From Nanobdellota archaeon (GTDB lineage: Archaea; Nanobdellota; Nanobdellia; Nanobdellales; Nanobdellaceae): a stretch of DNA of 32,000 bases. This document shows, in pieces, positions 584 to 22,658 of this stretch; position 1 is the stretch's first letter, and the number at the start of each line of letters is the position of its first letter. Position numbers and translations under genes: made by a program. Under the pieces are notes generated by a model. It had not been told where the DNA came from. It saw only the letters and a program-made list of their open reading frames with translations, and did not search any database. The stretch lies in NCBI GenBank assembly GCA_042850255.1, contig AP031373.1, positions 120,001-152,000 of the forward strand. The letters are read 5' to 3'.

Positions 584-844
584 ATGGTAAAAGTTATAAA
601 AAGATCTGGAAAAGAAGAAGAATATTTATCGGATAAAATATATAATTCTTTAATAAACAATAGCGTATTTAAGAAAATTGGAAATCAAATTGTGAAAAAA
701 ATTGATGAAAAAGTAAAAAATATGAAAAAGGTATCCACTAAGGAAATAAGAGAATATATTTTAAACAGATTACAACAGATAAAACCTGAAATTATAATAA
801 ATGGCAATCTTATAAAAAGATACCTAAGGAAAAACCAATGTTAA
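584..844 (+). CDS. Stand-alone ATP-cone domain protein
   Basis: 86 aa. It starts MVKVIKRSGKEEEYLSDKIYNSL…, matching the V-x-KRdG-x-x-E-x-f-x-x-x-KI ATP-cone signature, and the length fits a single ATP-cone. Confidence 0.6.
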   Translation: MVKVIKRSGKEEEYLSDKIYNSLINNSVFKKIGNQIVKKIDEKVKNMKKVSTKEIREYILNRLQQIKPEIIINGNLIKRYLRKNQC

Positions 845-1712: not shown

Positions 1713-2762
1713 ATGAAAAATAAAATAATTATTTTTACAACAATATTATCAACAATAGGACCTGCAATATTGGCAACTACCCATCTATCTATATATATAA
1801 CATTGCCATCATTTTTACTAGCATTAATAATATCCTATTTAACTTATTTATTAGTAAATTATAAAGGGGATTATACAGGATTATATGGATATTCAAAAGA
1901 TTTCCATCCTTTAGTAGGTTATATATTTTTAATTAGCTGGTTAGTTAGTTATTATTTATATACAATCTATACAGCAATTTATATTCCATATTATTTATTA
2001 AATCTAGATGGAAATATTGCAACTATGTTATCTATAATAATAGAAACAGTAATTGTTATTTCATTATTAACAAATTTTTATTATATATTTCCAATAATAA
2101 TATTTTCTCAACTATTCTTTATATTACCATTTAATATAAAATTACAATCTGGAAATTTAGTAAATATACATTCTTTATTTTATAATATTTTATCTTCTTC
2201 ATTAATATTAGTTTGTATAACATTATCTACATTTTTCAAATTTGAGAAAGAATATTCGAAATATGTTTTATATTCTGCAATAATTGGAGGAATTTTATTA
2301 ATTTATGGTTCATTTTTCATATTATCTAAATTTTCAATATATGGAGAAGCTATAGGAAATTTTGGTTTAATAATGGTTGAATTTTTAGCAATAAAAGATT
2401 TGTTTAAAGGATTAAATAAAGAAAAAATAATAAAATATTTGGCTTTATTATCTATTCCAATAGTTGCAATAGGAAATATAAATTATAATATATTTTATAA
2501 TTCTTTAATAGCTCCATCAGTTACTTTATTATACTTAAGTCTATTTTTAGGATTTTTATCAATATTTAGATATTTCAAATCATATAAAATATGGATATTA
2601 AATATTATTGCATTATCTTTATTTATCTTTGGATTATATAATGCAATTATATCTTCAAGAGGACATTTATTTTATGAATCTATAAGTGCTCTAATTTTAT
2701 CTATATTAATAGGAAGTATAGTATATGTCAAAAAATACAATATTATAAAAAATACTTATTGA
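1713..2762 (+). CDS. Polytopic membrane protein (about 10 hydrophobic helices), unknown function
   Basis: 349 aa, almost entirely hydrophobic helices. I recognise no signature. Confidence 0.55.
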   Translation: MKNKIIIFTTILSTIGPAILATTHLSIYITLPSFLLALIISYLTYLLVNYKGDYTGLYGYSKDFHPLVGYIFLISWLVSYYLYTIYTAIYIPYYLLNLDGNIATMLSIIIETVIVISLLTNFYYIFPIIIFSQLFFILPFNIKLQSGNLVNIHSLFYNILSSSLILVCITLSTFFKFEKEYSKYVLYSAIIGGILLIYGSFFILSKFSIYGEAIGNFGLIMVEFLAIKDLFKGLNKEKIIKYLALLSIPIVAIGNINYNIFYNSLIAPSVTLLYLSLFLGFLSIFRYFKSYKIWILNIIALSLFIFGLYNAIISSRGHLFYESISALILSILIGSIVYVKKYNIIKNTY

Positions 2763-2783
2763 TATTTTATTTTACTAAATTGA

Positions 2784-3044
2784 TTATATCTTTTTTTCTC
2801 CAATAATTTCTCTTAATAATCTTATAAATTCATTATAATTATATAATTCTCCAGATAATTTATTATAAATTGTTCTATCTCTATTTACAAAGAAATATTT
2901 ATCATATTTTATAAAATTTTCTATTAAAAAACTTTTCCCAGTTTTTCTCCTACCATATATAATCATTCTTGGAAAACTATTATTAATTTCTTTTATTTCT
3001 ATGAATCTATTTATTATGTTTATATTCATAATGATATCGTTCAT
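2784..3044 (-). pseudogene. N-terminal remnant of an archaeal ATPase (Arch_ATPase/PF01637-like, Walker A only)
   Basis: The 86-aa ORF contains …PRMIIYGRRKTGKSFLIENFIK…, the G-R-R-x-x-GK-S/T P-loop context of this family. Full-length members are several-fold longer. The ORF ends 21 nt from the convergent neighbour. Confidence 0.55.
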
Positions 3045-3117
3045 AATATTTCTTGTATTATTTTTAATTATGACTATATAGTGATAAATATTTAAATTTT
3101 CCTATTATTTAATTGTT

Positions 3118-4215
3118 ATGACTAAGAAAAGCAAGGGTCTAAAAGAATCTTTGAATGATATAATTAGAAAAAACGAAATAAATAAAGAAGAAATAATAGA
3201 TATTATTGATAGTTTCTGGAATAGAGAAAATATTGACGAAAATACTATAATAGATAATAAATTTAAAAGTTCTAATGATGAATATTTAAGAATAACATAT
3301 ATTAGAGATATTATTAAATCAAAGATGATGATAGGAACTTCAATGTCTATTCCAAATAATATAGGATTATATATTCATTCAAATATTAATAATTTATATA
3401 AATTGTTAATGTCTTATCAATTTGCTGAATTAATTTTAAATAATAATGCCAATGTATTTATGCAAAAATGGAATATATATCCCCCTATATCAAGAATTTA
3501 TGAAATAGATTTATCTAGTATGAGAATAACACCACTAGAAGATCCTTTAGAGTATGATGTAGAAATATTTTTTGTACATTTTTTAGATAATAAAGGTAGA
3601 ATAAAAAATAATCTAAAAGAAATTTTAGGTAAATTATCCAACTATATAAAATTAGACGAGTTACCCAAATTTAGCAATTATTCAAATGTTTATAATTTAT
3701 CTATTCTAAAATTAAAAAATATGGATAATAAAACAATAAATGGAAGAATATATATTGATGATCCCGAAAGTTTGGAGTGGGCAGCTAAGCTTTCTTTATT
3801 TTATGCTACTATGGATAAAGATCTTTTATCGACAATTATAAGAAAAACTAATTCTTATAGCATATTTGAATATATTTCCTTGTTAGCATCAAGTGATGTA
3901 AAAAAACCTAAAGAAGAAATAAACTATTATTATATATTATCTGCTAATTTTGAAGGATTGGAGAAATTAATAAATAACATAGGGGGATCTTATAATATAT
4001 ATAATCAAATTGAAGATATTAATAAATTTCCTAAATATGGATTATTGTTATGTACAAACTATGATAATAAAAATGTTTTAGGTATTGTAAATAATATTAT
4101 AACAACTAATAATAGAATAGATAATATAGAACTATCTATACCAGGAGGAAAATCTATTAATATAAGAGGCTATGAAAGGAATCTAATAAAAGAACCAATA
4201 GAATGCTTTAAATAA
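3118..4215 (+). CDS. Hypothetical protein (orphan, 365 aa)
   Basis: Long uninterrupted ORF in AT-rich DNA where stop codons are frequent. I recognise no domain. Confidence 0.55.
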   Translation: MTKKSKGLKESLNDIIRKNEINKEEIIDIIDSFWNRENIDENTIIDNKFKSSNDEYLRITYIRDIIKSKMMIGTSMSIPNNIGLYIHSNINNLYKLLMSYQFAELILNNNANVFMQKWNIYPPISRIYEIDLSSMRITPLEDPLEYDVEIFFVHFLDNKGRIKNNLKEILGKLSNYIKLDELPKFSNYSNVYNLSILKLKNMDNKTINGRIYIDDPESLEWAAKLSLFYATMDKDLLSTIIRKTNSYSIFEYISLLASSDVKKPKEEINYYYILSANFEGLEKLINNIGGSYNIYNQIEDINKFPKYGLLLCTNYDNKNVLGIVNNIITTNNRIDNIELSIPGGKSINIRGYERNLIKEPIECFK

Positions 4216-4236
4216 TTTTTTAATTAATTTTTTATT

Positions 4237-4581
4237 ATGATAAAAATAAAGAGAGTTTATGATCCTATTGAAAATGATGATGGAATAAGAATTTTAGTTG
4301 ATAGAATCTGGCCAAGAGGTATTAAAAAAGATAAAATATATATTTGGTTGAAAGATATAGCCCCTAGTAATGAATTAAGAAAATGGTTTAATCATGATCC
4401 AAATAAATGGGAAGAATTTAAAAGAAGATATTTTGAAGAATTAGATAAAAATTCTGAATTGAATAAGCTAATAGAAATAATAAAAAATAACAAAAATGTA
4501 ACACTATTATATTCTGCAAAATCTCCATATAATAATGCAGTGGCATTAAAAGAATATCTAGAAAAATTAAAAATTATATAG
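4237..4581 (+). CDS. DUF488 (YeaO-like) family protein
   Basis: 114 aa. RVYD…[15 protein letters not shown]…[33 protein letters not shown] matches the DUF488 consensus along its whole length. Confidence 0.85.
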
Positions 4582-5547
4582 TTATTTTTCTCTATAACTA
4601 TTTAATTTCTCTAAATAATAATTATCTTCCTTCTCACATAATTCTTCCATCTTTTTATTTATTTCTTTTTTATCTAATATAGATTTCCAGAATTCAATAT
4701 TATTATTTATGTTTTCTAGATATTTTATACTTTCTGTTGGATTTATATAAATTTTAGTATGTTTACATTCGTAATATATAATAGAGTCTTTAATGTTAAA
4801 TTTTTTATTATTCAATTCTTTTTGCATACATGCTAAAGAATAGAGTCCTTTAATTATATCCGGATTATTATAATATTTAATTATAGAAGATCTATTTTCA
4901 CAAAATTCTTTAAATATTTTTTCTGATTCTTTATCCTTTATCCAACCAATACCTTTTCTATTTTCTATATCATTACAACTCTTTTTTAATAAATCTTCTG
5001 GTAAAAATGGTAAAACATAATATAATAATATCTCTTTATTTCCTACATTTGGTATTATATAATCGTTATATTTATAGAAAGAACTATTTATTACAATAGT
5101 AGGACATCCCATGTTTTTAATATCTTCATATTTTGGCAATCTTTTATTTCTTTCTATATAATCCTTTATTTTATCTTCATATTCTTCCGCTATCTTTTCT
5201 CTAAGTTTTAATGATAAATTAGTAAGATATAGAATTATAGCCCTTTCAGGATCCTTTATAGCAATATTAAATAAATAAGGTTTTAATACTTCTTTTAGAG
5301 AATCTTTTGCTATTTAAAATAATGATTCTTCTATTAATAAATCCAAATCCTTATAAGAGTAATTATTATTTTTAGCTATTTCATCAAATATAATTTTTCT
5401 TATTTTCATTATATCTTCATCTAATAAATATTCTACAGTATAAACTATCAGATCTTTGAGTATATCACTATCTGGAATAGAAGAAACTATTAATCTAAGT
5501 TTCTCTTTTATTCCTTCATATATAAATTCATTCGACTCTTCAGACAT
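4582..5547 (-). pseudogene. Member 0 of the ~310-aa paralog family, interrupted by one in-frame TAA (5314-5316)
   Basis: Track ORFs 5314..5547 and 4582..5139 are in the same frame. My manual translation of 5140-5313 has no further stop, and the listed start at 5139 is only a TTG. The joined 321 codons match family length and motifs (YIIPNV…LLYYVLPFL…IGWIKDKESEKIFKEFCENRSSIIKYY…NINNNIEFW). Confidence 0.6.
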
Positions 5548-5595
5548 TCTAAAATAATATTAAAAAGCTTTAAATTCTTTATTACTACACTATAA

Positions 5596-6546
5596 CTAAT
5601 AAATTTTATAATAATTTTTATTTAAAACTTTCCCAGCTAATCTATACCAAAATAAGATATTTTCATTTATATTTCTTAGATTCTCTATATAACTTTTCTC
5701 ATTTTCTGAACTATTATTTAATACAATATTCCATCGTAAATCAAAATTTTTTAAATTATTGTTATCTAAATCAAGGATTATTCTAAGATATCCAACTTCA
5801 TTAATTTTATTATAAAAACTGTTTAAATATATTTCAAAATCTTCATTTATATATTTCTTATAATATTTTATTATAGATTCTGGATTGTTATAGTATTCTC
5901 TAAAAACTATGTATGGACTAAAACTGGCAAAATATTTTATTATATATCCTTTTTCTATATCTTCATAAATTTTTTTCATTATGTGATCAGGTATAGATGG
6001 GAGAATAGATAATAATGTTTTTGTTCTTCTAATTATTGGAAAATAATAATTATCACTAATATTATAAAATACTTCTGGATTTTTACTATATATATCTTCT
6101 GATATATTCAATTTACCACTTTCTCTTATATTTGATAATATATCTATAAAATTATCTATATCTTCGATACTAACAGGTTTTCTATTTATTCCAATTTCAT
6201 ATATATCTTTATGTATTAATTCTAAAGTATAAAAAGAGATATAAAATCTTATACAAGTACCTCTACTGTTACAAAATAATTTATAAAAATCTTCTTTAGT
6301 TTTTATTTCTTGTAATAATTTATCTATATAATCTTTAGCTTCCTTATATAATGTATTTTTTATTATATTACTTAAATTCTCTTCTCCATGTCTTTTTCCT
6401 TTTATTATATCTTTTGCTGTTTTTTCTATTATATCTTTTTTAGCTTCCTTTAGATAATAATTTATAATATTTGTATTATTTTCCTTAATTTTATAGTAAT
6501 TATTAATTATATGATCTATTTTATTTCTTATATCAATCTTTTTCAT
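5596..6546 (-). CDS. Paralog family member 1 (316 aa), unknown function
   Basis: Shares family motifs: YYFPII…LLSILPSIPDHI…FREYYNNPESIIKYYKKY…NINENILFWY. Confidence 0.7.
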   Translation of the reverse strand: MKKIDIRNKIDHIINNYYKIKENNTNIINYYLKEAKKDIIEKTAKDIIKGKRHGEENLSNIIKNTLYKEAKDYIDKLLQEIKTKEDFYKLFCNSRGTCIRFYISFYTLELIHKDIYEIGINRKPVSIEDIDNFIDILSNIRESGKLNISEDIYSKNPEVFYNISDNYYFPIIRRTKTLLSILPSIPDHIMKKIYEDIEKGYIIKYFASFSPYIVFREYYNNPESIIKYYKKYINEDFEIYLNSFYNKINEVGYLRIILDLDNNNLKNFDLRWNIVLNNSSENEKSYIENLRNINENILFWYRLAGKVLNKNYYKIY

Positions 6547-6601
6547 AATTATTATTTATAAAATATATTTAACTTTATTACGCAGTTATATTTATATTAT
6601 C

Positions 6602-7519
6602 CTATATCCTATCTTTACAATTATCTATAATATTATACCAAAATCTGATATTATTATTTACATTTCTAATAGTTTCTATATATTTCAAAACTTCTAAGAA
6701 ATTAAAATTATTATTTTCATACATTTTATTTATAATAGCTTTTTCTATATCACGCCATGCATCACAATATTCTTCATATCTTGCATTCTTTCTAATATCA
6801 GAAACTTCTTTTACTATATCATGATACTCGGTAAAAACATATAATCCCTTCGCTATATCTTTATTTAATTGTTCATAATATTTTATTATTGAACATTGGT
6901 TATTACAATATTCTTTAAATATTTCTAAAGCTTTTTCATTATTTAAAAAGTTCCTTGCTTTTTCTGAATTTTTATTATTTACTGCATTACAGTACTCATC
7001 TTTTATATTTTCACTAATAGATGGTATAACTTGTAAAATTTCTTCTTTATTTTTTATTACTGGAAGGATATAACCACTTACTCTAATAGTTGCATTTCTT
7101 AATTCTTTTTTATTTACTTTTGATACTATATCACTTGATAATAAATGTCCAAGTGATTTAGTATAATATATTACCTTTTTTCTATATATTTCATAATCAT
7201 TTGTATTTTCAAGCTCTATAAAAATGTTTACACAATTTTTATATGTTAAATTTGCTAAATTATATGATATACTATATATTAATGCATCTTCTAAAGATTT
7301 AAATTTTTTTAAATATTTTTCTTCCAACATAAATTTTATTAAATCCTCCAAATTTCCATCATCTTCTATTTTTAATACATTATCATATAGAATTTTCAAA
7401 AGTTTATTTTTAGATTCTTCTATATAATTATAAATTAAATCATTATTATTGGTATCTGCTTTAAAATGCTCGTTTATTATTTTTTTAATACTATCTTTTA
7501 AACTTTTATTCGATATCAT
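6602..7519 (-). CDS. Paralog family member 2 (305 aa), unknown function
   Basis: Family motifs: GYILPVI…ILQVIPSISENI…NNEKALEIFKEYCNNQCSIIKYY…NVNNNIRFWY. Confidence 0.7.
   Translation of the reverse strand: MISNKSLKDSIKKIINEHFKADTNNNDLIYNYIEESKNKLLKILYDNVLKIEDDGNLEDLIKFMLEEKYLKKFKSLEDALIYSISYNLANLTYKNCVNIFIELENTNDYEIYRKKVIYYTKSLGHLLSSDIVSKVNKKELRNATIRVSGYILPVIKNKEEILQVIPSISENIKDEYCNAVNNKNSEKARNFLNNEKALEIFKEYCNNQCSIIKYYEQLNKDIAKGLYVFTEYHDIVKEVSDIRKNARYEEYCDAWRDIEKAIINKMYENNNFNFLEVLKYIETIRNVNNNIRFWYNIIDNCKDRI
6875..6946. repeat. 72-nt tract near-identical to 7794-7865 (copy A)
   Basis: Direct comparison gives 71/72 identical positions, with the mismatch at 6897 versus 7816. The flanking sequence of the two paralogs is strongly diverged. 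Confidence 0.85.
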
Positions 7520-8441
7520 AATCTTTTAAACATTTTATAGACATTTCGAGCCAGAAAGCAATATTACCATTAGTATTCTCCAATACTTCTATAGCCTTTA
7601 GCATATTATAAATGTTTTTATTATTATTTTCAATTATTATATATTTTCCAACAGATTTCCAAATTCTTACTAATTTATCATATTTATTTGGCCCCTTACT
7701 TTCTTCTAATTCTTTGGATTTACTATACAAATTCTCAGGTACACTTTTTAAATATCTTAAATATTCATCAAACGATTTATCTACATATTTCTTATAATAT
7801 TTTATTATTGAACATGGGTTATTACAATATTCTTTAAATATTTCTAAAGCTTTTTCATTATTTAACCATTCAATTTCTTGATTATTTTCTATTTCTCTAC
7901 AAAATTTTTTCTTTATATCATGTCTAATCGATGGAAGTATATGTAACAAATCTATTATATTTTCTTTTTCATCTTTATAATTAATTTTTGGAAATATATA
8001 GTCATATCTGATTATTATTTTATCACTACTTTTACATCTTATTTTATCTATATCGTCTCTTCTTAAAGACATACCGGTACTCCTTAAATATTCTATAAGT
8101 CTTTCCCTACAATCATTTACTCTCAATATATCTAATTGTAAATTGTATGAATTCTTTTTATGCATATTTTCTATAGAAATAATAGATATAGATGTTTTAA
8201 TTAATTCATCTAAAGATTCGGAATTTACTTTATTTACTAAATCTTCATCTAAATATTTTTTAATTATATTAATTATTATATTTTTAATATCTTCTATACT
8301 ATAATTATAAGTATTTTTCAAATTTTCATTAATATTATTTTTTAAATAATCTGCAGATTCCTTAACATAATTTTTTATATATTTATACTTTTTATTAATG
8401 GGTTTATTAATTATACTATTAATATAATCTTGTATATCCAT
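7506..8441 (-). CDS. Paralog family member 3 (311 aa), unknown function
   Basis: Family motifs: YIFPKI…LLHILPSIRHDI…NNEKALEIFKEYCNNPCSIIKYY…NTNGNIAFWL. Its 3' end overlaps the start of member 2 by 14 nt. Confidence 0.7.
   Translation of the reverse strand: MDIQDYINSIINKPINKKYKYIKNYVKESADYLKNNINENLKNTYNYSIEDIKNIIINIIKKYLDEDLVNKVNSESLDELIKTSISIISIENMHKKNSYNLQLDILRVNDCRERLIEYLRSTGMSLRRDDIDKIRCKSSDKIIIRYDYIFPKINYKDEKENIIDLLHILPSIRHDIKKKFCREIENNQEIEWLNNEKALEIFKEYCNNPCSIIKYYKKYVDKSFDEYLRYLKSVPENLYSKSKELEESKGPNKYDKLVRIWKSVGKYIIIENNNKNIYNMLKAIEVLENTNGNIAFWLEMSIKCLKDYDIE
7794..7865. repeat. 72-nt tract near-identical to 6875-6946 (copy B)
   Basis: See copy A. The tract encodes NNEKALEIFKEYCNN(Q/P)CSIIKYY. 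Confidence 0.85.
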
Positions 8442-9357
8442 TTTCTATTTTCAAGCAAGTAATTGCAATATTTAACCATCCAAATATATTACTATTAACT
8501 TCCAAAACTCTCTCTATTTTCATTAATTCTTCGACTTTTTTATTATAGATATATTCTAATTCTATTCTCATTCTACTCCTAAAATTTTTTTCATATCTTA
8601 CTCTATCATTCAAACCAGGTTTTATTATATCTTTATATTCTAAAAAATTTTTTAGATATTCGCTAAAATTTGGATCTATGATTTTATTATAATAATCTAA
8701 TATAGAGCATTTATTTTTACAATATTCTTTAAATACTTTTTTAACATCCTCATTTTTTATCCATTCTATTTTATGATCATTCTTGGTTAATTCTTTATAT
8801 ATATTATCTTTTATGTTTCCATACATTGATGGAATTATATATAAAAGATCTTCTAATTTGTTTATTTCAGGAAAATATTTGCCCTTAAAAGTATATAATT
8901 TTGATGTATTAAATCTAGAACACTCAATTTCTGATAAATTTGTATTATTTACTAAAAATCCTATTTCTCTTATATATTTTCTAATTCTTTCTTCACATCC
9001 ATTAATTTTTTTAATATCCTCAATTTTGTTATCTCTAATATATTGAGTTTGTATATCCTTTTTTTGAAAACCTTTATATAGAAGCAGTATAAATTTATCA
9101 GATAAGTCTCCTGGTATCTCTTTTTTCGTAAAACCAAGTCTCCTTAATTCTCTATCTATTATAAAACTCATCAACATATCCAAATAATTAGAATTTTTGT
9201 CTATATATTTCTCAGAAATATCAATTAATTTTTTTATTTCATTATTAATATAATATTTAATTAGAGTATTTTCTAATATATTAGAATCTCCAATATATTC
9301 TTTTATTGAATCCTGTAAGATGTTTCTTATACTAATTTCTAAATCTTCATTATGCAT
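8419..9357 (-). CDS. Paralog family member 4 (312 aa), unknown function
   Basis: Family motifs: KYFPEI…LLYIIPSMYGNI…IEWIKNEDVKKVFKEYCKNKCSILDYY…VNSNIFGWL. Its 3' end overlaps the start of member 3 by 23 nt. Confidence 0.7.
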   Translation of the reverse strand: MHNEDLEISIRNILQDSIKEYIGDSNILENTLIKYYINNEIKKLIDISEKYIDKNSNYLDMLMSFIIDRELRRLGFTKKEIPGDLSDKFILLLYKGFQKKDIQTQYIRDNKIEDIKKINGCEERIRKYIREIGFLVNNTNLSEIECSRFNTSKLYTFKGKYFPEINKLEDLLYIIPSMYGNIKDNIYKELTKNDHKIEWIKNEDVKKVFKEYCKNKCSILDYYNKIIDPNFSEYLKNFLEYKDIIKPGLNDRVRYEKNFRSRMRIELEYIYNKKVEELMKIERVLEVNSNIFGWLNIAITCLKIENGYTRLY

Positions 9358-9495
9358 GCTAAATAAATCATTATATGAAAAATTTAAATATTATTACTAA
9401 ATAGTAATAAACCTTTAATATGGTAAGAAAATTTATTATTATTTATTAAATAATCGTAACGTAATGTTATTATAAATTTTTGGAAATAATATATT

Positions 9496-10431
9496 ATGAA
9501 TAATTACAATAATCTTGAAGATAAAATAAGTAATATAATAAAAAGCTTCTTCAAAGATAATAAAGATTATCCTAATGAAGAAAATTTAGAAAATTATGGA
9601 ATAAATATAAATTATAATATAAATAATTTGAACGAAGAAGATATAGAAAAAATCACTTTATATATTTATTCATCTACATTTAGTAGATTATCCTTATATA
9701 ATTGGGGAATAAAAGTATATATTACTCCAGAAAATTTAAATGATTTAATAAATAAAATCACAAGTTATAGTTTTATAAAATCAATAAAAGAAGAACAATT
9801 TGGATTAGAAATAAATAAATCTGTTTATAAGAGTGTATCTTTATATGAAATAATAATCAGTATTCCATTTTTTTCTAGTAAAGACTATGACATATCTCCA
9901 CTAAGTTACCTAGGTTTTAAAAATAATTTAAATAATCTTCCCAAGATGGATATATTAAATATTAACAAAATAGAATTTTCGGGGAATGTAATGGGAAGAT
10001 TTTCTCCATGTTTATATAAAGATAATGAGAAATCAATTGAAATAGGAGCTTGTAGTTTAGATAAAGAAATCGAAGAGGCTTTTGAAAAAAGTAGATTATT
10101 AATAAATTTTAACAATAATTATAATACCAATATTCTAGCTGTTTCAAAAGATGGATTAATAAAGCTATTGAAAGAAAAATTTGATAAGGAGTATAGATTA
10201 GATCTTGATGAAGATAAAAAAGAAAAAGATATTATAATTTTAGAAGCTGAGATAAATAGCAAATCTTTAGAAAAGCCAATAGAAATTCCTGTAATAGTTG
10301 AAAATGCATCGTTCTATGACAAAAATCTTTTAAATGTTATAGTATTAGCTCCCGTTTACCCTTATACATTTCACATTTCCGAAAGTTCTATATTAAATGA
10401 TTTTTTACATAATTTTGAAAATAGATTATGA
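9496..10431 (+). CDS. Hypothetical protein (311 aa), divergently transcribed from the paralog array
   Basis: Long ORF. Its N-terminus NLEDKISNIIKSFFKD resembles that of member 2 (SLKDSIKKIINEHFKAD), but the rest is not recognisably related. Confidence 0.55.
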   Translation: MNNYNNLEDKISNIIKSFFKDNKDYPNEENLENYGININYNINNLNEEDIEKITLYIYSSTFSRLSLYNWGIKVYITPENLNDLINKITSYSFIKSIKEEQFGLEINKSVYKSVSLYEIIISIPFFSSKDYDISPLSYLGFKNNLNNLPKMDILNINKIEFSGNVMGRFSPCLYKDNEKSIEIGACSLDKEIEEAFEKSRLLINFNNNYNTNILAVSKDGLIKLLKEKFDKEYRLDLDEDKKEKDIIILEAEINSKSLEKPIEIPVIVENASFYDKNLLNVIVLAPVYPYTFHISESSILNDFLHNFENRL

Positions 10432-10861
10432 AATCTCTAAATAGAATTATTTTTTAGAGTTATTGTAATTTATTGGAAGAATAATAGATTTCATTAAACA
10501 ATTATTACTATAATTTCTACAAAATTTTATATTTAAATAAAAAATAATATTCCCCAATATAGCTTTTTTAACAGTATTATTATAACATCTAATATATTAT
10601 TTAATTCCGTTTTTATATAATCGTCACAATATTCTATATTTTTTAAATTTTCAATAATTTCTATCAGCTATCTCTATACAATTTTTATAATATTCTAAAT
10701 CTTTATTTTCTAATTTATTATTTTTTATTAATTCATATAAAATAATTAAATATATAATTTTAAAAAGCACTATTAACTAAAGATAATAAGTAACATTTTT
10801 GAGTTTTTATTATTATTGCCATTAAACATTAATTTTTAGATATAAGAAAATCTATATATTT

Positions 10862-11395
10862 TTATGGAGAATCTCTATCTATTAAATTGATTTCTTTTTC
10901 TATACTAAGATCTTTTTCATCTAATATTACTATCTCCTTTATATTTTCTGTTTTTACTTTTTCTAAGGTTTTAAATGAACTATCTGTAGTCAAGAATACT
11001 TCACATATAAGATCTGATATAGAAAAGTGTAATAAATCATTAAATCCAGGAACACTAGAATGTATTTTTACATTATTTATATAATCTATACTTTTATTTA
11101 ATGCCCCTATAATGTTCAAATATTTTATCGTTATTTGTTTATTTTCTTTAATATCTATGATTTTATATATAGACATCATATCTTCTATAAATTTTTCATA
11201 AGCTTCTGATTTACTCATATTTGGATACCATTCATCTTTATATCTTTCTCTTGAAAATAATATATGTAAAGCTTCTTCTATCCCAATAATACTAATATAA
11301 GGTGTTATATTTTCAGAATATGGAGAATAAGCATGATTTTTAATTTTTTTAATAGAAAATGCAATTGCCGGATATGTATCATAATATACCTTCAT
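10862..11395 (-). CDS. PIN-domain-like protein (putative nuclease) with an enlarged central insert
   Basis: 177 aa. Acidic residues sit in the PIN pattern: KVYYDTYPAI (beta1 Asp), IGIEEALH, and GFNDLLHFSISDLICEVFLTTDSSF (the D…A/S…T-x-D-x-x-F C-terminal signature, Asp-to-Asp spacing about 18). Confidence 0.45.
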   Translation of the reverse strand: MKVYYDTYPAIAFSIKKIKNHAYSPYSENITPYISIIGIEEALHILFSRERYKDEWYPNMSKSEAYEKFIEDMMSIYKIIDIKENKQITIKYLNIIGALNKSIDYINNVKIHSSVPGFNDLLHFSISDLICEVFLTTDSSFKTLEKVKTENIKEIVILDEKDLSIEKEINLIDRDSP

Positions 11396-12098
11396 TTCTT
11401 AATTTCTTTAAATCTTTAGAGAACTCTATTAAAGTATCCTCATTAACTTTTTTATCTTCTACAATATCTATTATATTTTTATTTACTCTTATAGCTAAAT
11501 CATTTACAAAGTCAATATATTTTATATAAAAATCTTCTTTCTTTATATATTTAGCATTGTAATATAAAGATATAGCAAATATAGGTTCTAAACCAACTTT
11601 GAATCCTAAAATAGAATAATCCAAATTTATATCGTAAGGTATTTTAATTTCAGTATAATTTTTGATTATAGCTTCCAATACTTTTGTTAGAATCTTAATA
11701 TGTAAATTATGAACTATATAAACTAAATTAGGTAACAGATTTTTATCTAGGTATATTATAGGAAATTTCTCGCTAGATAATATAATTTTATAATTATTAT
11801 TCATAAAATCAGAAAATTTTACTTCCATAAATTTAGATAATTTTATTTTTTTGTTTCTTAATTTTTTAATTTTTTTCTTAATTATTTCTTTAATTATATT
11901 TTCATCATTCAATATATTATAAGAAAACCTGTATATATTTTTTAAAACAACTTCTGTATCTCTTTTTCTAAATAAAATTTTAATAATATTATTTAGAGTA
12001 TATATATCTCTAATTTTTAATGTTTTTCTTTCCTTTACTAGATTTATGTCCGATATCGAATATAACCCATAGGCTAAACTAGGATATATATAATTCAT
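11379..12098 (-). CDS. Hypothetical protein (239 aa), upstream partner of the PIN-like gene
   Basis: Long ORF whose 3' end overlaps the PIN-like gene start by 17 nt. I recognise no domain. Confidence 0.55.
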   Translation of the reverse strand: MNYIYPSLAYGLYSISDINLVKERKTLKIRDIYTLNNIIKILFRKRDTEVVLKNIYRFSYNILNDENIIKEIIKKKIKKLRNKKIKLSKFMEVKFSDFMNNNYKIILSSEKFPIIYLDKNLLPNLVYIVHNLHIKILTKVLEAIIKNYTEIKIPYDINLDYSILGFKVGLEPIFAISLYYNAKYIKKEDFYIKYIDFVNDLAIRVNKNIIDIVEDKKVNEDTLIEFSKDLKKLRNEGIL

Positions 12099-12388
12099 AA
12101 TTTTAATATTTTTTTTATCTATTTAATAATGTTTACAAACACCCTAAATAAAATTTGTTAAAAATTAATAATTTTATTGATTGAAATTTTTAGAATAATA
12201 AATGATCCAAATGCGATTCTATTCTTTATTTTATTGAATAAAAAACTATAATATGAGTTTTTAATTTATTTTCATTTTTAAATATTGTTTAAAAATACTA
12301 GTAACAATTAATTTAATTTATTTAATTTTAAAGATTCCTAAGTTGAAGAAAGTTATATTTATAAATTTTATTCACAAAATACTATCAT

Positions 12389-13225
12389 ATGAGTAATAAA
12401 GATAATAAATATAATTTATTGCCATATATATCACTTGGAGGATTTATATTATCATCTATAGGAACTGTTGATGTTGCTAAAAATACATCAAATTTTGATC
12501 TTATAGCACCCCTTTTTATAAGTTCTGTAGGCTTTTTGATGGCTTTTGTAATATCCGCTACTAACTCAATTAGAAAAGAAATAGGAAAATTTGATAATGA
12601 TCAATTCGAAAACTCACAAGTTTGGGATATATATAAATATACTATAAAAATAAATAATGGATTAAAAGAAGAAGTTACAGTTATTATGCCAGATAGATCC
12701 TCTTATGATTATATAATAACAAAGGATAAAGATAGCTATGAAACACTAAATAGAATATATTCTATATCAAAAAATTATAATAAAAATTTACATATAATTA
12801 CTAGTAGAGATTCAGAAGGCGATTACATATCCTTCTTTTTTACGGGTGAAATAAAACCATATTATATATATGTAATAACAGATAATGAATATTTTAATTT
12901 AGATGGTATATTATATAACTATAAACCTTTATTATTAGTTAAAGATGAATCTGGAAAAACATTTGGATATAATCCTAATACTGGCTTTACAAAAATAAAA
13001 GATAATGGAGCAAAAGAATATGTTAAAATATCTGAAGAAATAAATGGAAAAAGTTTAAATAAATATGATTTATATAATAATAGACCAGATAATATAGTAA
13101 AGGATTATAAGATGTTGCCTATAGGGTTTGTAAATAAATATGAGGGAAGATTAATATATAGTGTTATGGGATCCGATAACAGCGAAATGGGTAAGAAGAA
13201 GTTGGTTGAAATATTATCTAAATAA
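12389..13225 (+). CDS. Membrane-anchored protein (two N-terminal TM helices plus a soluble domain), unknown function
   Basis: 278 aa. Two hydrophobic segments in the first ~60 aa (LLPYISLGGFILSSIG…, LIAPLFISSVGFLMAFVISA) are followed by a Y/N/K-rich domain. Confidence 0.55.
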   Translation: MSNKDNKYNLLPYISLGGFILSSIGTVDVAKNTSNFDLIAPLFISSVGFLMAFVISATNSIRKEIGKFDNDQFENSQVWDIYKYTIKINNGLKEEVTVIMPDRSSYDYIITKDKDSYETLNRIYSISKNYNKNLHIITSRDSEGDYISFFFTGEIKPYYIYVITDNEYFNLDGILYNYKPLLLVKDESGKTFGYNPNTGFTKIKDNGAKEYVKISEEINGKSLNKYDLYNNRPDNIVKDYKMLPIGFVNKYEGRLIYSVMGSDNSEMGKKKLVEILSK

Positions 13226-13287
13226 TCTAAAAAATTTCAATAAATTAACCTTGCCTATACATAATAAAATTTTATATTTTTCATAAT

Positions 13288-13328
13288 AGGTCTGGTAAGG
13301 ACGACGGATAATTGCTGTTATCCGACCT
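13288..13328. ncRNA. GC-rich structured island between convergent genes (candidate small RNA or terminator hairpin)
   Basis: About 49% G+C over 41 nt (20 G/C counted) in an otherwise AT-rich spacer. A perfect 7-bp hairpin forms between cggataa (13305-13311) and ttatccg (13318-13324) with loop ttgctg. The flanking aggt (13288-13291) and acct (13325-13328) can also pair. Confidence 0.3.
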
Positions 13329-13433
13329 GATAATTATAATATATACTATAATTTCTAACCTTCTTAATGTATGTTACTTATTTACACAAGCTTTATATCT
13401 TGTTATCAAATATTTTCCATATATAAATAATAG

Positions 13434-14288
13434 TTAGGCAGAATTTTCTGTACCTTTATATATTAAGCCAAATTTAATAAAACTTAAGGAATCATTAGAT
13501 ATATCTTTTAATTCTATATTTTCTACTTTTTTTCCATTATAAGAAATAACATCTAGTTTTATACCATCTTTATCATTATATATTTTCCATACTAAATATG
13601 GTAAATAAATATAATGATCATTATCATCAAATTTTTTCAAATTGACTAAATATATATTGATATCTAAGTTTAATAAATCTCTAATTTTAGATTCTCTTAA
13701 TCTATTTAATTTTTCTTCTAAATTATAACCCATATTTTTTGTTATATATTCACCTGATACAAAATATACTTTCTCATCAAGAGTTAAAAGATCTATTAAT
13801 GGGTCCAAACCAATTGAATAAAAGTTAATGTAAATATTATCTGAAATTTTAAATTTATTAAGATTTACATAATTATATAAAGGGTTTAGATTTGCCAATG
13901 ATATCCCTATAGTATCAAACAAAGATCTTATTGTTTTGTCTTTATCTTCATTTATTTTATATAATATTTCTATATAATTATTTTCTTCAGATGATAATCT
14001 ATTATCTTTTTTTACTCTTATCATTATATATCCATTGTAAAGATATGATAGAAACTGTATATAATTTTCTAAAAGATGATCATAAATATTACCATAGTTT
14101 ATATTTATAGAAACTATAAACTTACTTTGATTTTTATTATATTTTTCTGAGTATATTTTTAATTCATAACCTCCAAACTCCAATTTTTTTATTTCAACTG
14201 TTATATTATCTATTTTACAATTACTTTTTTCTTGTGTATGAAATAAAAAGTTATTTATTACATCAAATAAATCGAGATTGTAAGACAT
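13434..14288 (-). CDS. Hypothetical protein (284 aa)
   Basis: Long ORF with no recognised domain. Confidence 0.55.
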   Translation of the reverse strand: MSYNLDLFDVINNFLFHTQEKSNCKIDNITVEIKKLEFGGYELKIYSEKYNKNQSKFIVSININYGNIYDHLLENYIQFLSYLYNGYIMIRVKKDNRLSSEENNYIEILYKINEDKDKTIRSLFDTIGISLANLNPLYNYVNLNKFKISDNIYINFYSIGLDPLIDLLTLDEKVYFVSGEYITKNMGYNLEEKLNRLRESKIRDLLNLDINIYLVNLKKFDDNDHYIYLPYLVWKIYNDKDGIKLDVISYNGKKVENIELKDISNDSLSFIKFGLIYKGTENSA

Positions 14289-14656
14289 AAAATATTATTT
14301 ATCCTTTATCTTTATATCCATACCTCCTTCATAACTATCATTTTAATATATTTTACCCTTTCGTAAGATCTGATAATGAATTTATACATTCTTCTTTTCC
14401 CAATTTTTTAATATATATATTACATAATTTCTCCCTATATTATTATCCCTCCAGATATATTTACAAAACATTACTAAGATCCTCTTTATATTTTTTATAA
14501 TATTATCCTAAAGTAGTATATAATCTATGATCTGACCTAGTTAAACCCCCCAAATGTATGATATACTATCTTTTTCTGGCATCGACTATTATCATTTAAA
14601 ATTCTACCATTAAATTAATAATAAATATCTATGATAATTTTTCTTCTTATGATTTC

Positions 14657-15262
14657 TTATACCTTTTCCAATATGGAAAATACATAATAAAAGATTCCCC
14701 AAGAATACAGAGTATCATTAATTTTATTGAAAAAATCAATTATTTTATTTTTTATTCCTTTTAAATTATTATTATATTTTATTTCTATTAAATCTATATT
14801 TATATTCATTTTATTTAATAAATCTTTTATATTAATTCTATCATATTTATCAATTAATAATTTTACATTATAATATTTTTCTTCAGAATATTGTAAAGAT
14901 AAATCTAAATATTTATAAAATTCTCTTAAAAGAGTTTTTTCAATCATATAATTTATTATTGGATTAATTTTATTATCTGTATAAAAAATTATTTTTTCTA
15001 TATTTTTATTTGAAGATATATAATACAAAATATTTATTAAATATTCAAAAGGATCTTCTGATCTTTCATAAACACAATTTATACCTGATTTTTTTAATAA
15101 TATTAAATAATCTCTAATATATTTTTCATCTCCTCCATTAATTAAAATAATAAAATCTTTATTTTCTTTTAATATTTTATCTAAATTTTGAAACAAATAA
15201 TTTAACCTAAAAATTTTTCTATTTTTATTATTTATACCATACTCTGCAATTAATATTGTCAT
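14657..15262 (-). CDS. Hypothetical protein (201 aa), faint NYN/LabA-like alpha/beta layout
   Basis: The pattern TILIAEYG…ILINGGDEKY…GINCVY…KIIFYTDNKINPIINYM loosely recalls NYN/LabA strand order. The first catalytic Asp is not conserved, so this is very tentative. Confidence 0.4.
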   Translation of the reverse strand: MTILIAEYGINNKNRKIFRLNYLFQNLDKILKENKDFIILINGGDEKYIRDYLILLKKSGINCVYERSEDPFEYLINILYYISSNKNIEKIIFYTDNKINPIINYMIEKTLLREFYKYLDLSLQYSEEKYYNVKLLIDKYDRINIKDLLNKMNINIDLIEIKYNNNLKGIKNKIIDFFNKINDTLYSWGIFYYVFSILEKV

Positions 15263-17286: not shown

Positions 17287-17748
17287 TTACAATAGATTTC
17301 TTTCCTTTAATGTTAATAGAAGTCTTAAAGATTTTACAGCATCCTCTGGAGATTCAAATACTGGTGCATATCTTTCTAAAGATATTTTTATTTGCTCTGT
17401 AAATCCACCTCCATATACTACAAAAACTAATGGTTTTTTATTAATTATTTTCGAAACTTTTTCTGGGAATTTTTCTGTAAAAAAGGATAATTGAGGCAAT
17501 ACAATAGATATTATACCCTCAGTCCTATAATCATTTAATAATATTTCTAAACCTTTTATATATTGATCTTCATTTGCTTGAGCAGTAGTATCTATAGGAT
17601 TATGAAATGAGGAAAAAGAAGGTAAAATTTGTTTTAGTTTTTCTTTTATATCCTCAGGAGTTTCTTGTAAAAGTATATTATTTTGTTCTAACGCATCTGT
17701 AGCTAAAACTCCTTCCCCACCACCATTTGTATAAACATATACTACCAT
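17287..17748 (-). CDS. ADP-forming acetyl-CoA synthetase (ACD) alpha subunit, C-terminal domain encoded as a separate ORF
   Basis: 153 aa starting MVVYVYTNGGGEGVLATDA… This corresponds to the …ITNGGGxGVxAxDA… start of the last alpha-subunit domain and continues to the normal C-terminus (…PVFESPEDAVKSL…). Confidence 0.8.
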   Translation of the reverse strand: MVVYVYTNGGGEGVLATDALEQNNILLQETPEDIKEKLKQILPSFSSFHNPIDTTAQANEDQYIKGLEILLNDYRTEGIISIVLPQLSFFTEKFPEKVSKIINKKPLVFVVYGGGFTEQIKISLERYAPVFESPEDAVKSLRLLLTLKERNLL

Positions 17749-17768
17749 ACTAACAAAATATAATTTCT

Positions 17769-17782
17769 AAAATTTAAAAATT
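17769..17782. promoter_or_regulatory. Shared A/T element (AAAATTTAAAAATT), putative bidirectional TATA box
   Basis: Its centre lies about 27.5 nt from both the ATG at 17803 (+) and the ATG at 17748 (-), within a 54-nt divergent spacer. Confidence 0.4.
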
Positions 17783-17802
17783 GTAAAAGAGAGATAAAGA
17801 AT

Positions 17803-18504
17803 ATGCGTGGATGGTTTGGTAAGAAAAAATATAGTGTACAAGAAATTGAAAGTGAACTAAATAAATTTAGAATATCTATGGAAAAACAACTAAATATAAC
17901 CGGTATTGAACCTCATATAAATGAAATAATACAACTTATAGAAACCAATAGAAAGGACGAAGCAAAAAATAAATTAAATCAAATGAGGAATGAGTTGCAC
18001 GAAATCTTATTTTTAAGAAAAGAAATTTTTAGTAAGTATAAAGATGCTGTTAAACTATTAAGCAATATAATTAGATTGGTTAGTGGAGAAGCTGTAGTAC
18101 ATGTAGGAGGAAATCCAAAAGTAATAGATGCAGAAAAATCTCAGACACTTTTAAAAGAAGAACATCAAAAAATTAAAAAATCATTAGAAAAAATGGAATC
18201 AGATATACGCAGAATTAGAGAAGATATGATTAAAGAAAGAAGATTAAATATAGTAAGTCATGATGAAATATTTCAACGTGCAGTTACGTTTATATCAGGA
18301 TTTAATAAAAATGAAATGTTAAAATATCTTGAAAATGCTAATGGAAATCGAGGAATAATAGTAGAATTAGCTAGAAAATATGGAATACCATATGAAGAAA
18401 ATATCCAAGAATTTATTAAAATATTAGAAGAAAAAGAAAATAAATATGAGGAGTTCCTAAATAAAGATATAAGATTATTGGAAGATATAGAAAATAGATT
18501 ATAA
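17803..18504 (+). CDS. Coiled-coil protein, possible ESCRT-III/PspA-superfamily member (copy A)
   Basis: 233 aa. It has a basic/aromatic N-terminus (MRGWFGKKK), long heptad-like helices and the pattern …IETNRKDEAKNKLNQMR…LRKEIF… reminiscent of the k-G-n-x-x-x-A-k-x-x-L-x-x-k-k hairpin motif. The tail is helical and HTH-like, ending …LLEDIENRL. Confidence 0.4.
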   Translation: MRGWFGKKKYSVQEIESELNKFRISMEKQLNITGIEPHINEIIQLIETNRKDEAKNKLNQMRNELHEILFLRKEIFSKYKDAVKLLSNIIRLVSGEAVVHVGGNPKVIDAEKSQTLLKEEHQKIKKSLEKMESDIRRIREDMIKERRLNIVSHDEIFQRAVTFISGFNKNEMLKYLENANGNRGIIVELARKYGIPYEENIQEFIKILEEKENKYEEFLNKDIRLLEDIENRL

Positions 18505-19374
18505 GTAATAAGAAATTGTTTTTAAATATATCATAAAATCATTCATATTTTTTGCTTCTATTATTCCATATTGCTTAAATAAATTTTTATATACTTCATA
18601 ATCTCCAGCTAATGATGCGGTATGTGAAGAAACTGCAACAGAACCTCTCTTTGTTTTTCCAGATTTTAATACTATTATTGGTTTATTTAATTCCTTTGCG
18701 ATTTCTAAAAATTCTCTACCTTTTCCTTCTTTTAATCCTTCCATATATATAAATATAGCTTTTGTATTTTCATCATTTCTTAATTCTTTCAATATTTCTA
18801 TTTCATCTAAATCAATTTTATTTCCATATGATATAATTTTTGATACTCCTATATCTTTACTTGACAACCATTCCATTACTGCTAAAGATATTGCACCAGA
18901 TTGTGATAATAAAGCAATTTTACCTTTTTTTGGTCTTTTAATTCTAACTTCTTCTACAAAAAATGTATCAAAACCAATATATGGATCATATAAACCCATT
19001 CCATTCGGACCTAAAATTCTTATACCATATTCTTTTGAATATTTTAATATTTCTTCTTCTAAATCTTTTCTTCCAACTTCAGAAAATCCTGCAGATACTA
19101 TTATTCCTAATTTTATTCCTTTTTCTCCAGATTCTTTAATTATCTCAGGAACACCTTCTGCTGGTATAGCGACTATAACACAATCTACAGGTTCTTTTAT
19201 ATCTAAAACAGATTTATAACATTTTAATCCATATAAATTTTCATAATTTGGATTTACAGGATATATTTTACTATTAAATCTTTTTATAAAATTTTTTAAT
19301 ATTATATTTCCAACTTTCCCTTCTTTATTACTTGCTCCAACAATTGCTACAGATTTTATATCGAAGAGTCCCAT
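18499..19374 (-). CDS. ADP-forming acetyl-CoA synthetase (ACD) alpha subunit, N-terminal CoA-binding/ligase-CoA domains encoded as a separate ORF
   Basis: 291 aa. KSVAIVGASNKEGKVGNIILKNF (CoA-binding Rossmann), LSQSGAISLA, and SSHTASLAG (phosphohistidine loop). It ends where the last alpha domain normally begins. Confidence 0.85.
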   Translation of the reverse strand: MGLFDIKSVAIVGASNKEGKVGNIILKNFIKRFNSKIYPVNPNYENLYGLKCYKSVLDIKEPVDCVIVAIPAEGVPEIIKESGEKGIKLGIIVSAGFSEVGRKDLEEEILKYSKEYGIRILGPNGMGLYDPYIGFDTFFVEEVRIKRPKKGKIALLSQSGAISLAVMEWLSSKDIGVSKIISYGNKIDLDEIEILKELRNDENTKAIFIYMEGLKEGKGREFLEIAKELNKPIIVLKSGKTKRGSVAVSSHTASLAGDYEVYKNLFKQYGIIEAKNMNDFMIYLKTISYYL

Positions 19375-20929: not shown

Positions 20930-21682
20930 ATGATATTAGAAAAAATAACATCAAAATATATCAATTATATTACTGTTAGAAATTATGATAAAAATAAAAA
21001 ATATTTAGGACAAGATATTTTAGTAAAATATTTGTTGAATAAAAAAAGAATATATAAAGATGAAGGGAAAACAATATACAAAAATTTTATAGAAGTAAAA
21101 TTAAACCAAAATGCAAAAGAAATGTTGGAATTAGATAAAGAAAAAATATTAAAAGATTTAGAAAATGAAAAGAAATTTTTAATTGATAATTCTTTATATA
21201 ATTTATTATCTAATAAAGGAAAAATAAGTTTAAAAACACAAATAACACAATCATTAAAGTTTATAAGAGAATATTTATTTGACACAAATTTAATTTTAAT
21301 AGGAGATATCGATTATTCTTTTTTAGGAAAAAATATGGTAAAAATATATAAAAAACAAGAAGAATTTAATTTCTATAAATATAAAGCCGTAATTTTAGAT
21401 CCATACGGAGAAGAAGTATTAAATGATGATGATTTAAAAAAATATGATCTATTTATTTTAGGAGGAGTTGTTGATATAGATTTAAAATGGTATTATGCAA
21501 CTCAATATTTATTTAGAAATATTAATTTGCCACATAAAAGAATTGAATATAAAGGAAGTATAGAAAATGTTCCAGATAGAATAAATATTTTAATAAAAAT
21601 TTTGTTAGATTCTATCTATTTAAATATTCCTTTAGAAAAATCTATTGAAATAAATTCTCCAAAAAAGTTTAAATTATCTTAA
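20930..21682 (+). CDS. SPOUT-type RNA methyltransferase, Trm10-like (tentative)
   Basis: 250 aa. The C-terminal half …AVILDPYGEEVLNDDDLKKYDLFILGGVVDIDLK…PHKRIEYKGSIENVPDRINILIKILLD resembles the archaeal Trm10 SPOUT core (x-LdP-x-g-x-x-L … h-I-h-GG-I-V-D). Confidence 0.45.
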   Translation: MILEKITSKYINYITVRNYDKNKKYLGQDILVKYLLNKKRIYKDEGKTIYKNFIEVKLNQNAKEMLELDKEKILKDLENEKKFLIDNSLYNLLSNKGKISLKTQITQSLKFIREYLFDTNLILIGDIDYSFLGKNMVKIYKKQEEFNFYKYKAVILDPYGEEVLNDDDLKKYDLFILGGVVDIDLKWYYATQYLFRNINLPHKRIEYKGSIENVPDRINILIKILLDSIYLNIPLEKSIEINSPKKFKLS

Positions 21683-22516
21683 TATTAATTCAGGATTTAT
21701 TTCCCTATATATAGAATTTTGATGAGTATTTATATAACTCTTATATTTTTCTATTATCCTTTTTCTTCCTTTATCTCCAAATATTTCTAAAACTTTTTTC
21801 TTATCTTCTTCATCAAAATATTTTTGTAAATTTTTCCATTTTTCATAATCAAGATTTTCCTCTAATTTTTTCAAATCTTCTTGATCCTTTTGAGAAAATC
21901 TGTAAAATTTATATATTAGAGTAAATAATGTAAAATTATTTAAAAAATATATTGTATCATATTTACTTTTCTGTAATACTATATTACTTTCATTTGTTAC
22001 TAAAATATGTACTTTTTTATCTTTAAATGATAAATATGAATAATAACCAATTTGATTTGGGATACATAAGGTTTTTTCATTATAGGAAAAACATATCTTA
22101 TAAATATCTGGATTCATATTATATGCTCCTATCTTTAATAATTCTTCCCTTATTATTTCAATATCTTCTTTACTTTTTGTAACTATATCAATTACATTAC
22201 TTGATTTAGATCCTTCCAATTTTTTATATAAGTTTAATATAAGATCTAAACTCCCCATAATTCCTATATTTAAATTATTTTTGATTCTTAAATCTTCTAA
22301 TATATTTATAACATATTCTAAATCATTTATATCTACCCTTCTTTTTTGGATCGATGAATAAAAATCTATTTTTACTTTAGTTTTATTTTTATTTAGATAA
22401 TTAATTATTTGATAAGCATAATTTATCTGCGATATAAGATCTTTAGATATCTCTAAATATGGAAAATTAGGCAAAGTTGAAATACTATATAATATATCTA
22501 TTGGATTAGTAGACAT
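21674..22516 (-). CDS. Hypothetical protein (about 280 aa)
   Basis: The track ORF (to 22615) begins inside tRNA-Gln. I trimmed it to ATG 22516 (MSTNPIDILY…), which has TTTTTAAAAATT about 28 nt upstream. ATG 22558 (MKIFLKIIIIICFF…, hydrophobic leader) is the alternative. Confidence 0.5.
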   Translation of the reverse strand: MSTNPIDILYSISTLPNFPYLEISKDLISQINYAYQIINYLNKNKTKVKIDFYSSIQKRRVDINDLEYVINILEDLRIKNNLNIGIMGSLDLILNLYKKLEGSKSSNVIDIVTKSKEDIEIIREELLKIGAYNMNPDIYKICFSYNEKTLCIPNQIGYYSYLSFKDKKVHILVTNESNIVLQKSKYDTIYFLNNFTLFTLIYKFYRFSQKDQEDLKKLEENLDYEKWKNLQKYFDEEDKKKVLEIFGDKGRKRIIEKYKSYINTHQNSIYREINPELILR

Positions 22517-22585
22517 AAAAAAGCATATTATAATTATAATTTTTAAAAATATCTTCATTTTTAACAGAAATAAAATAAATAAAAC

Positions 22586-22658
22586 TAGCCCCGCGGGGAT
22601 TCGAACCCCGGTCACAGGGACCAGAGCCCTGTATCCTAGACCACTAGACGACGGGGCT
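22586..22658 (-). tRNA. tRNA-Gln (anticodon CTG)
   Basis: The reverse complement folds as AGCCCCG-TC-GTCT-AGTGGTCTA-GGAT-A-CAGGG-CTCTGGT-CCCTG-TGAC-CGGGG-TTCGAAT-CCCCG-CGGGGCT-A. The A1-U72 pair is typical of archaeal tRNA-Gln. Confidence 0.93.

Follow-up and report, generated by a model that had tools for sequence, protein, structure and literature searches.

The stretch of DNA analyzed here comprises 32,000 nucleotides (nt), positions 120,001 to 152,000 of contig AP031373.1 in the assembly GCA_042850255.1, and is referred to below as the window. It belongs to YN1, 'Ca. Nanofervidus parviconus' of the Nanobdellota, an obligate ectosymbiont of Sulfurisphaera ohwakuensis with a closed genome of 773,326 bp and 889 protein-coding genes (PMC11420986). 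YN1 depends on its host for most of its metabolism, has a narrow host range and is among the few DPANN archaea cultivated in co-culture. In the window, five consecutive open reading frames (ORFs) on the minus strand encode related proteins of about 310 amino acids (aa), to which an earlier note on this DNA, made from the sequence alone, had drawn attention as an array of paralogs of an unrecognised family. In the order in which they would be transcribed, these genes are:

8419..9357, minus strand: member 5, 312 aa, YN1_1420, a hypothetical protein in GenBank (P0001) and the first gene of the array
7506..8441, minus strand: member 4, 311 aa, YN1_1410, whose start lies 23 nt inside member 5
6602..7519, minus strand: member 3, 305 aa, YN1_1400, whose start lies 14 nt inside member 4
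5596..6546, minus strand: member 2, 316 aa, YN1_1390, separated from member 3 by a gap of 55 nt, the most divergent intact copy
4582..5547, minus strand: member 1, a family member whose frame is broken by a stop codon, either a newly arisen pseudogene or a truncated gene

The array is a genuine protein-coding family, and its members are true paralogs that stem from old tandem duplications in YN1. Pairwise BLASTP comparisons yield E-values between 2e-6 and 7e-26 (main alignment of each pair, composition-based statistics), and the aligned identity to member 5 amounts to 25-30%, compared with the 8.5% expected from composition only. At the DNA level, a block of 137 nt occurs in five copies with 61-72% identity and a spacing of 895-1015 nt. 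Stop codons account for about 10% of random codons in DNA with a guanine-plus-cytosine (GC) content of 20%, which corresponds to a probability of approximately 3e-14 for an ORF of about 310 codons, so that four open frames of this length are not the product of chance. No sixth copy was detected in any frame of the window with a hidden Markov model (HMM) of the family. The earlier note had described five consecutive genes with a common core at low overall identity and with overlaps of 23 and 14 nt. The BLASTP comparisons bear out the homology, and the overlaps are exact, at 8419-8441 (members 5 and 4) and 7506-7519 (members 4 and 3); all five ORFs are present as well, but member 1 is not the intact gene of 321 codons that it was taken for. 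The sequence motifs listed in that note are recognizable in the members, with small deviations in member 2 (VFREYYNNPES) and in member 1 (LPFL in place of PS(I/M)).

The array consists of four intact genes and one fresh pseudogene, member 1, which is interrupted by the following codon:

5314..5316, minus strand: in-frame TAA, codon 78 of member 1, aligned with a Lys codon in member 2

Outside this stop the frame is intact and every motif is kept, so that the inactivation looks recent. The protein database record of member 1 covers only a C-terminal fragment of 185 aa (P0005). An assembly error is an unlikely cause of the stop because the same sequence, with 100% identity over 3058-6927 and the stop included, was obtained in an independent short-read (Logan) assembly of run DRR287338. 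An alternative genetic code was rejected since the codon is TAA, not TGA, and TAA is the normal stop in 34 of the 43 long ORFs of the window.

In 14 of the 31 window genes, the hexamer TTTAAA or TTTATA starts between -34 and -27 from the ATG, against about 1.6 expected. In archaea, hexamers enriched at such a position are the signature of TATA boxes that drive leaderless mRNAs, and the enrichment suggests that most transcripts of this genome are leaderless; the pattern can be used as a promoter predictor for YN1. A scan for bacterial sigma-70 promoters and terminators, irrelevant for an archaeon, returned fewer sites than shuffled sequence. Within the array, hexamers of this kind precede members 5 and 1:

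9383..9388, minus strand: candidate TATA box, TTTAAA, at -31 from the ATG of member 5
5569..5574, minus strand: TTTAAA of member 1, at -27, still present

Members 4 and 3 have neither a TATA hexamer at the canonical position nor a preceding Shine-Dalgarno-like sequence, and in member 2 the only candidate is TTAAAT near -26, which is TATA-like but non-canonical. Given the single TATA box at member 5 and the starts of members 4 and 3 inside the preceding genes, members 5, 4 and 3 probably form one leaderless, translationally coupled operon; members 2 and 1 possibly have separate promoters. Co-transcription and translational coupling of the overlapping genes, held to be almost certain in the earlier note, are thus plausible for members 5, 4 and 3 on the strength of the overlaps and the single TATA box, short of the certainty originally attached to them.

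The products of the family are soluble, cytoplasmic, mostly helical proteins of about 310 aa. All members are hydrophilic, with grand averages of hydropathy (GRAVY) from -0.55 to -0.68 and isoelectric points of 5.4-8.8, and no transmembrane helix or signal peptide is found in any of them, the top Kyte-Doolittle mean over 19 residues being 1.24. The proteins have a two-part layout: about 105 aa at the N-terminus diverge fast (mean identity 24%), and the C-terminal domain that follows, about 200 aa long, is better conserved (mean identity 32%). In the AlphaFold2 (AF2) model of full-length member 5, with a predicted local distance difference test (pLDDT) score of 64, residues 1-105 are poorly predicted and the C-terminal part is confident. 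For the C-terminal 200 residues of member 3, modeled from a six-sequence alignment, pLDDT reaches 87.8 and the predicted template modeling (pTM) score 0.85, and the five models agree:

6605..7204, minus strand: C-terminal domain of member 3, residues 106-305, with a predicted beta-hairpin and then about 10 short helices (AF2)

The predicted order of elements in this domain is a long helix, two short helices, the beta-hairpin and the short helices. Foldseek searches with the C-terminal model revealed no significant match in PDB (best E-value 1.3, template modeling score at most 0.27) or in BFVD (best E-value 0.22), and the full-length model of member 5 likewise returned nothing significant; structural novelty is claimed with respect to these two databases. 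The predicted succession of helix, short helices and beta-hairpin at the start of the domain bears a superficial likeness to a winged helix, the remainder being short helices. No significant Foldseek match links the domain to winged-helix, TPR or ARM-like folds, however, and the would-be recognition helix spans 6 residues that are neither conserved nor basic, which speaks against membership among the winged helix-turn-helix proteins.

The residues invariant in all six known members (the five of the array and one homolog from another genome, discussed below) are P, L, N, S, Y, L, N, I and W, and no conserved Asp, Glu, His, Lys, Arg or Cys is present in the six-sequence alignment. This lack of a conserved catalytic-type residue argues against an enzyme. 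A C-x3-C motif of members 3-5 was considered as a metal or redox site and discarded, as it is absent in member 2 and partial in member 1 and in the homolog. Likewise, no invariant Arg or His is available for the R-x(4-6)-H motif of HEPN proteins, and no member has a Pfam HEPN match. These results agree with the earlier note, which saw no transmembrane helix, signal peptide or catalytic signature in the family.

Comparison with profile collections places the array proteins outside the families represented there. In Pfam, the best matches have E-values of at least 0.01 and scores of 12-16 bits, vs. cut-offs of 21-27 bits, and involve a different family for each member; NCBIfam gave one match for one member (E-value 0.0076), below the curated cut-off. 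Among the PADLOC-DB defence models, one of the six members matched MkoA at an E-value of 0.023 and nothing else was found. The best PHROGs E-value is 0.017, with single members matching different families, and PDB sequences gave no match near the threshold. When 1.84 billion cluster representatives were searched exhaustively with a profile, six proteins were recovered, namely the five array members and a protein designated P0006; the library is clustered at 50% identity, so that close relatives of a listed protein are hidden. The distribution of the family was taken from this search, as word-index protein searches were swamped with low-complexity candidates and failed to return even proteins identical to the query. 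Pattern scans of GTDB species genomes, JGI metagenomes and IMG/VR, and tblastn searches of GenBank phages and PLSDB plasmids, revealed no relatives. The array genes are not mentioned in the YN1 paper or in two 2026 Nanobdellota preprints. The array proteins are therefore new as a protein family, as the earlier note had proposed: Pfam, NCBIfam, PHROGs, PADLOC and PDB sequences as well as Foldseek against PDB and BFVD all lack a match, and the confident assignment to a known family or structure that would have spoken against novelty was sought by profile and Foldseek searches without result.

Kinship within the window was also explored. The neighboring ORF 9496-10431 (plus strand), which is divergent from the array, encodes 311 aa like the family, and its N-terminus, NLEDKISNIIKSFFKD, resembles the N-terminal helix of the family. 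As a candidate relative it was rejected at an hhalign probability of 0.4%, and comparison of the family with the neighbors 9496-10431, 3118-4215 and 1713-2762 gave probabilities below 1% throughout. A shared N-terminal 'L-x-D-x-I-x-x-I-I' tag was dismissed as well, given that the HMM of this motif scores internal segments of phosphoenolpyruvate (PEP) synthase and other unrelated proteins equally; the likeness is due to chance in a proteome rich in Lys, Ile and Asn.

P0006 (331 aa; full-length match, E-value 3e-14) is the only homolog outside YN1 detectable by the exhaustive profile search. It is encoded on the 9.9-kb contig JBPMBW010000015, with 30% GC, of the metagenome-assembled genome (MAG) GCA_054017035.1, an accession that no paper mentions in the literature consulted. 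The gene is single-copy on the contig and is flanked by gatA and gatB, with gatB following after 22 nt. On the gatA side, between gatA and P0006, it is adjoined by a toxin-antitoxin pair of the MNT/HEPN type that has decayed (L001 4052-4874); the two genes are divergent and both interrupted by stops, and their remnants match NTP_transf_2 (E-value 9e-9) and HEPN (E-value 1.3e-19). The contig also encodes GatCAB, two class II aminoacyl-tRNA synthetase (tRNA-synt_2) genes and two PIN genes, one of which is next to a ribbon-helix-helix (RHH)/VapB-like gene. P0006 shares with the array members the two-part layout and the motifs Y-x-x-P, N-x-x-S and N-N-I-x-F-W; it differs from them in being single-copy rather than part of an array, in the higher GC (30%) of its genome and in lacking the PS(I/M) and FKE motifs. 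A comparison of the two loci indicates that the family is placed differently in the two genomes, beside accessory genes.

The window has a GC content of about 20% and includes housekeeping genes for PEP synthase, a topoisomerase, a wyosine-forming radical S-adenosylmethionine enzyme and an archaeal pilin, as well as three tRNAs. The array is located inside a block of 13 kb (1713-15262, or approximately 1.7-15.3 kb) in which nearly all genes are without a family match, and the GC content of this orphan block is 18-21% vs. 22-31% in that half of the window which carries the housekeeping genes. Apart from the array, ORFs of the block that mostly lack a Pfam, NCBIfam or PHROG match are 1713-2762, 3118-4215, 9496-10431, 10862-11395, 11379-12098, 12389-13225, 13434-14288 and 14657-15262. 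The array is adjoined by a DUF488 gene at 4237-4581 (plus strand), whose best Pfam match is the 'inactive DUF488-N3 subclade' (3.7e-34); this gene ends at 4581 and the opposite-strand stop codon of member 1 begins at 4582, so that the two are convergent with zero intergenic bases. Marks of a mobile element are missing from the region: neither an integrase nor an attachment-site repeat or flanking tRNA is present at the array, and a long terminal repeat is absent as well.

Among the possible roles of the array, the one that we favor, tentatively and with low confidence, is that of an accessory, non-enzymatic family of binding or scaffold proteins subject to birth-and-death evolution. It is suggested by the lack of catalytic residues, the combination of a conserved core with a variable N-terminus, the probable coupling of members 5, 4 and 3, the pseudogene and the patchy distribution of the family. 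A single leaderless mRNA that begins at the TATA box at 9383-9388 would carry members 5, 4 and 3, and termination-reinitiation at the overlaps would provide for the translation of members 4 and 3; the three proteins would thus appear together and in similar amounts. The conserved C-terminal domain might mediate an interaction that all members share, binding either one another or the same partner, and specificity might come from the variable N-terminal region. Such a family would be accessory rather than core, prone to gene birth and death. The pseudogenization of member 1, the location of the homolog at another locus beside a decayed MNT/HEPN pair and the low-GC orphan block all point, if weakly, to this accessory character, and a birth-and-death pattern would be expected of genes for dealings between symbiont and host or with mobile elements.

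Several considerations weigh against the accessory binding or scaffold role. The term non-enzymatic is an argument from absence that draws on six sequences only, and the probable translational coupling of three genes fits an obligate complex at least equally well. The tree of the six sequences is star-like (bootstrap 12-73%); it gives no order of the duplications and is compatible with their having taken place before as well as after the split from the MAG lineage. Finally, comparison of the paralogs by the NG86 method gives 0.6-0.8 nonsynonymous (dN) and 0.6-1.0 synonymous (dS) substitutions per site, values that have reached saturation and that the extreme AT bias distorts; their ratio is without weight.

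The paralogs could instead be subunits of a hetero-oligomeric assembly, such as the filaments or the cone gate, that evolved from an ancestral homo-oligomer; we consider this, the main rival reading, rather unlikely. Cryo-electron tomography of YN1 revealed a cone-shaped attachment organelle with a gate and two kinds of cytoplasmic filaments, including 6.6-nm filaments, and the cones, the gate and the 6.6-nm filaments are so far without assigned proteins. In favor of such an assembly, the proteins combine a helical, soluble character with a conserved core domain, the stop-to-start overlaps of members 5, 4 and 3 behind one candidate promoter suggest equimolar synthesis, and the homolog in the MAG is single-copy. 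Thermosome subunits and PCNA1/2/3 of Sulfolobales are operon-encoded paralogous subunits of hetero-oligomers and belong to universal, essential families. The array may be likened to them insofar as its members are old, divergent paralogs of equal length, three of which appear to be translationally coupled, but it has no sequence or fold relationship with either, occurs in two genomes and includes a pseudogene. Nanobdella aerobiophila, moreover, is reported to have the same organelle, yet the exhaustive profile search found homologs only in YN1 and one MAG. Members 2 and 1 are set apart and may have promoters of their own, and with its in-frame stop, member 1 lowers the likelihood of an obligate complex of five subunits.

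It appears improbable that the array acts against viruses or other mobile elements as a defence, anti-defence or toxin-antitoxin-like module. Birth-and-death evolution is typical of conflict genes, the array is located in a low-GC orphan block and adjoins a DUF488 gene, and P0006 has the decayed MNT/HEPN pair and the PIN and RHH/VapB-like genes on its contig. Toxin-antitoxin remnants are, however, widely scattered in the genomes of thermophilic archaea, which makes the adjacency to MNT/HEPN weak evidence; PADLOC gave no hit, no nuclease, NTPase, other effector-type domain or conserved catalytic-type residue was found in the family, and five paralogs of similar size are unlike a sensor-plus-effector layout. 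An origin of the genes from an integrated virus, a plasmid or some other mobile element, of which they would be remnants without a function for the cell, is more doubtful still: the orphan-rich block of lower GC, the patchy distribution and the different position in the two genomes speak for such an origin, but PHROGs, BFVD, IMG/VR, GenBank phages and plasmids hold no match, the array lacks an integrase, an attachment-site repeat and a flanking tRNA, and four long ORFs have been kept open in DNA of 20% GC. Decay of the whole array into non-functional sequence, to which the pseudogene and an NG86 dN/dS near 1 might be taken to point, seems most improbable, as four frames of 305-316 codons remain open against the roughly 10% of random codons that are stops, motifs are shared with the homolog of a different genome (E-value 3e-14), the fold is predicted confidently and the dN/dS values carry no weight for the reasons given above.

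A further reading, likewise improbable, is that the proteins have a new fold that serves the interplay between ectosymbiont and host. The products of members 5, 4 and 3 might then build a cytoplasmic structure at the attachment organelle or the filaments, or they might be effectors that enter Sulfurisphaera without a signal through a cytoplasmic bridge. Host-dependent microbes are known to carry tandemly amplified, fast-diverging, lineage-specific families, examples of which include the effector and repeat-protein arrays of obligate symbionts. The array recalls these in its narrow range, tandem amplification, high divergence and pseudogenized member, and in the narrow host range of the organism; it differs in having no export signal, recognizable repeat or effector domain. 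The resemblance to hetero-oligomer subunits and to symbiont effector arrays alike is one of analogy, not of membership.

Several features elsewhere in the window are of separate interest. A GTG-started ORF at 21674-22615 (minus strand) overlaps the tRNA-Gln gene at 22586-22658 on the same strand by 30 nt, and its translation probably begins further downstream, at an ATG inside the ORF. What look like pieces of an ADP-forming acyl-CoA synthetase occur in separate ORFs, with CoA_binding and Succ_CoA_lig at 18499-19374 (minus strand) and Ligase_CoA_2 at 17287-17748 (minus strand), separated by an unrelated ORF at 17803-18504 (plus strand); the pieces within 17287-19374 may represent a split gene. 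Between a gene with a tRNA-editing domain and a DUF973 gene, an ORF of 86 aa with a weak ATP-cone match is present at 584-844 (plus strand). Gene calls on the Logan assembly include it (L003 2125-2385), and it falls below the lower cut-off of 100 aa that was applied in the ORF listing of the window.

The importance of the family is limited by its occurrence in two genomes only, by a function that is not readable from sequence and by a structural novelty that is measured against PDB and BFVD only. Many orphans are expected in DPANN genomes; a genome of 889 genes in which about 4.8 kb are given over to five copies of one protein resembling nothing else nevertheless offers, in this amplified orphan, a concrete and testable lead. 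Amplified orphans retained in a reduced genome are natural candidates for host recognition, for the attachment machinery or for conflict with viruses, roles that in YN1 have so far no assigned proteins, and since YN1 can be cultivated in co-culture, the array genes are directly accessible to experiment. If the proteins do serve the interplay with the host, adaptation to a single host species would be what shows in the tandem expansion and in the pseudogene.

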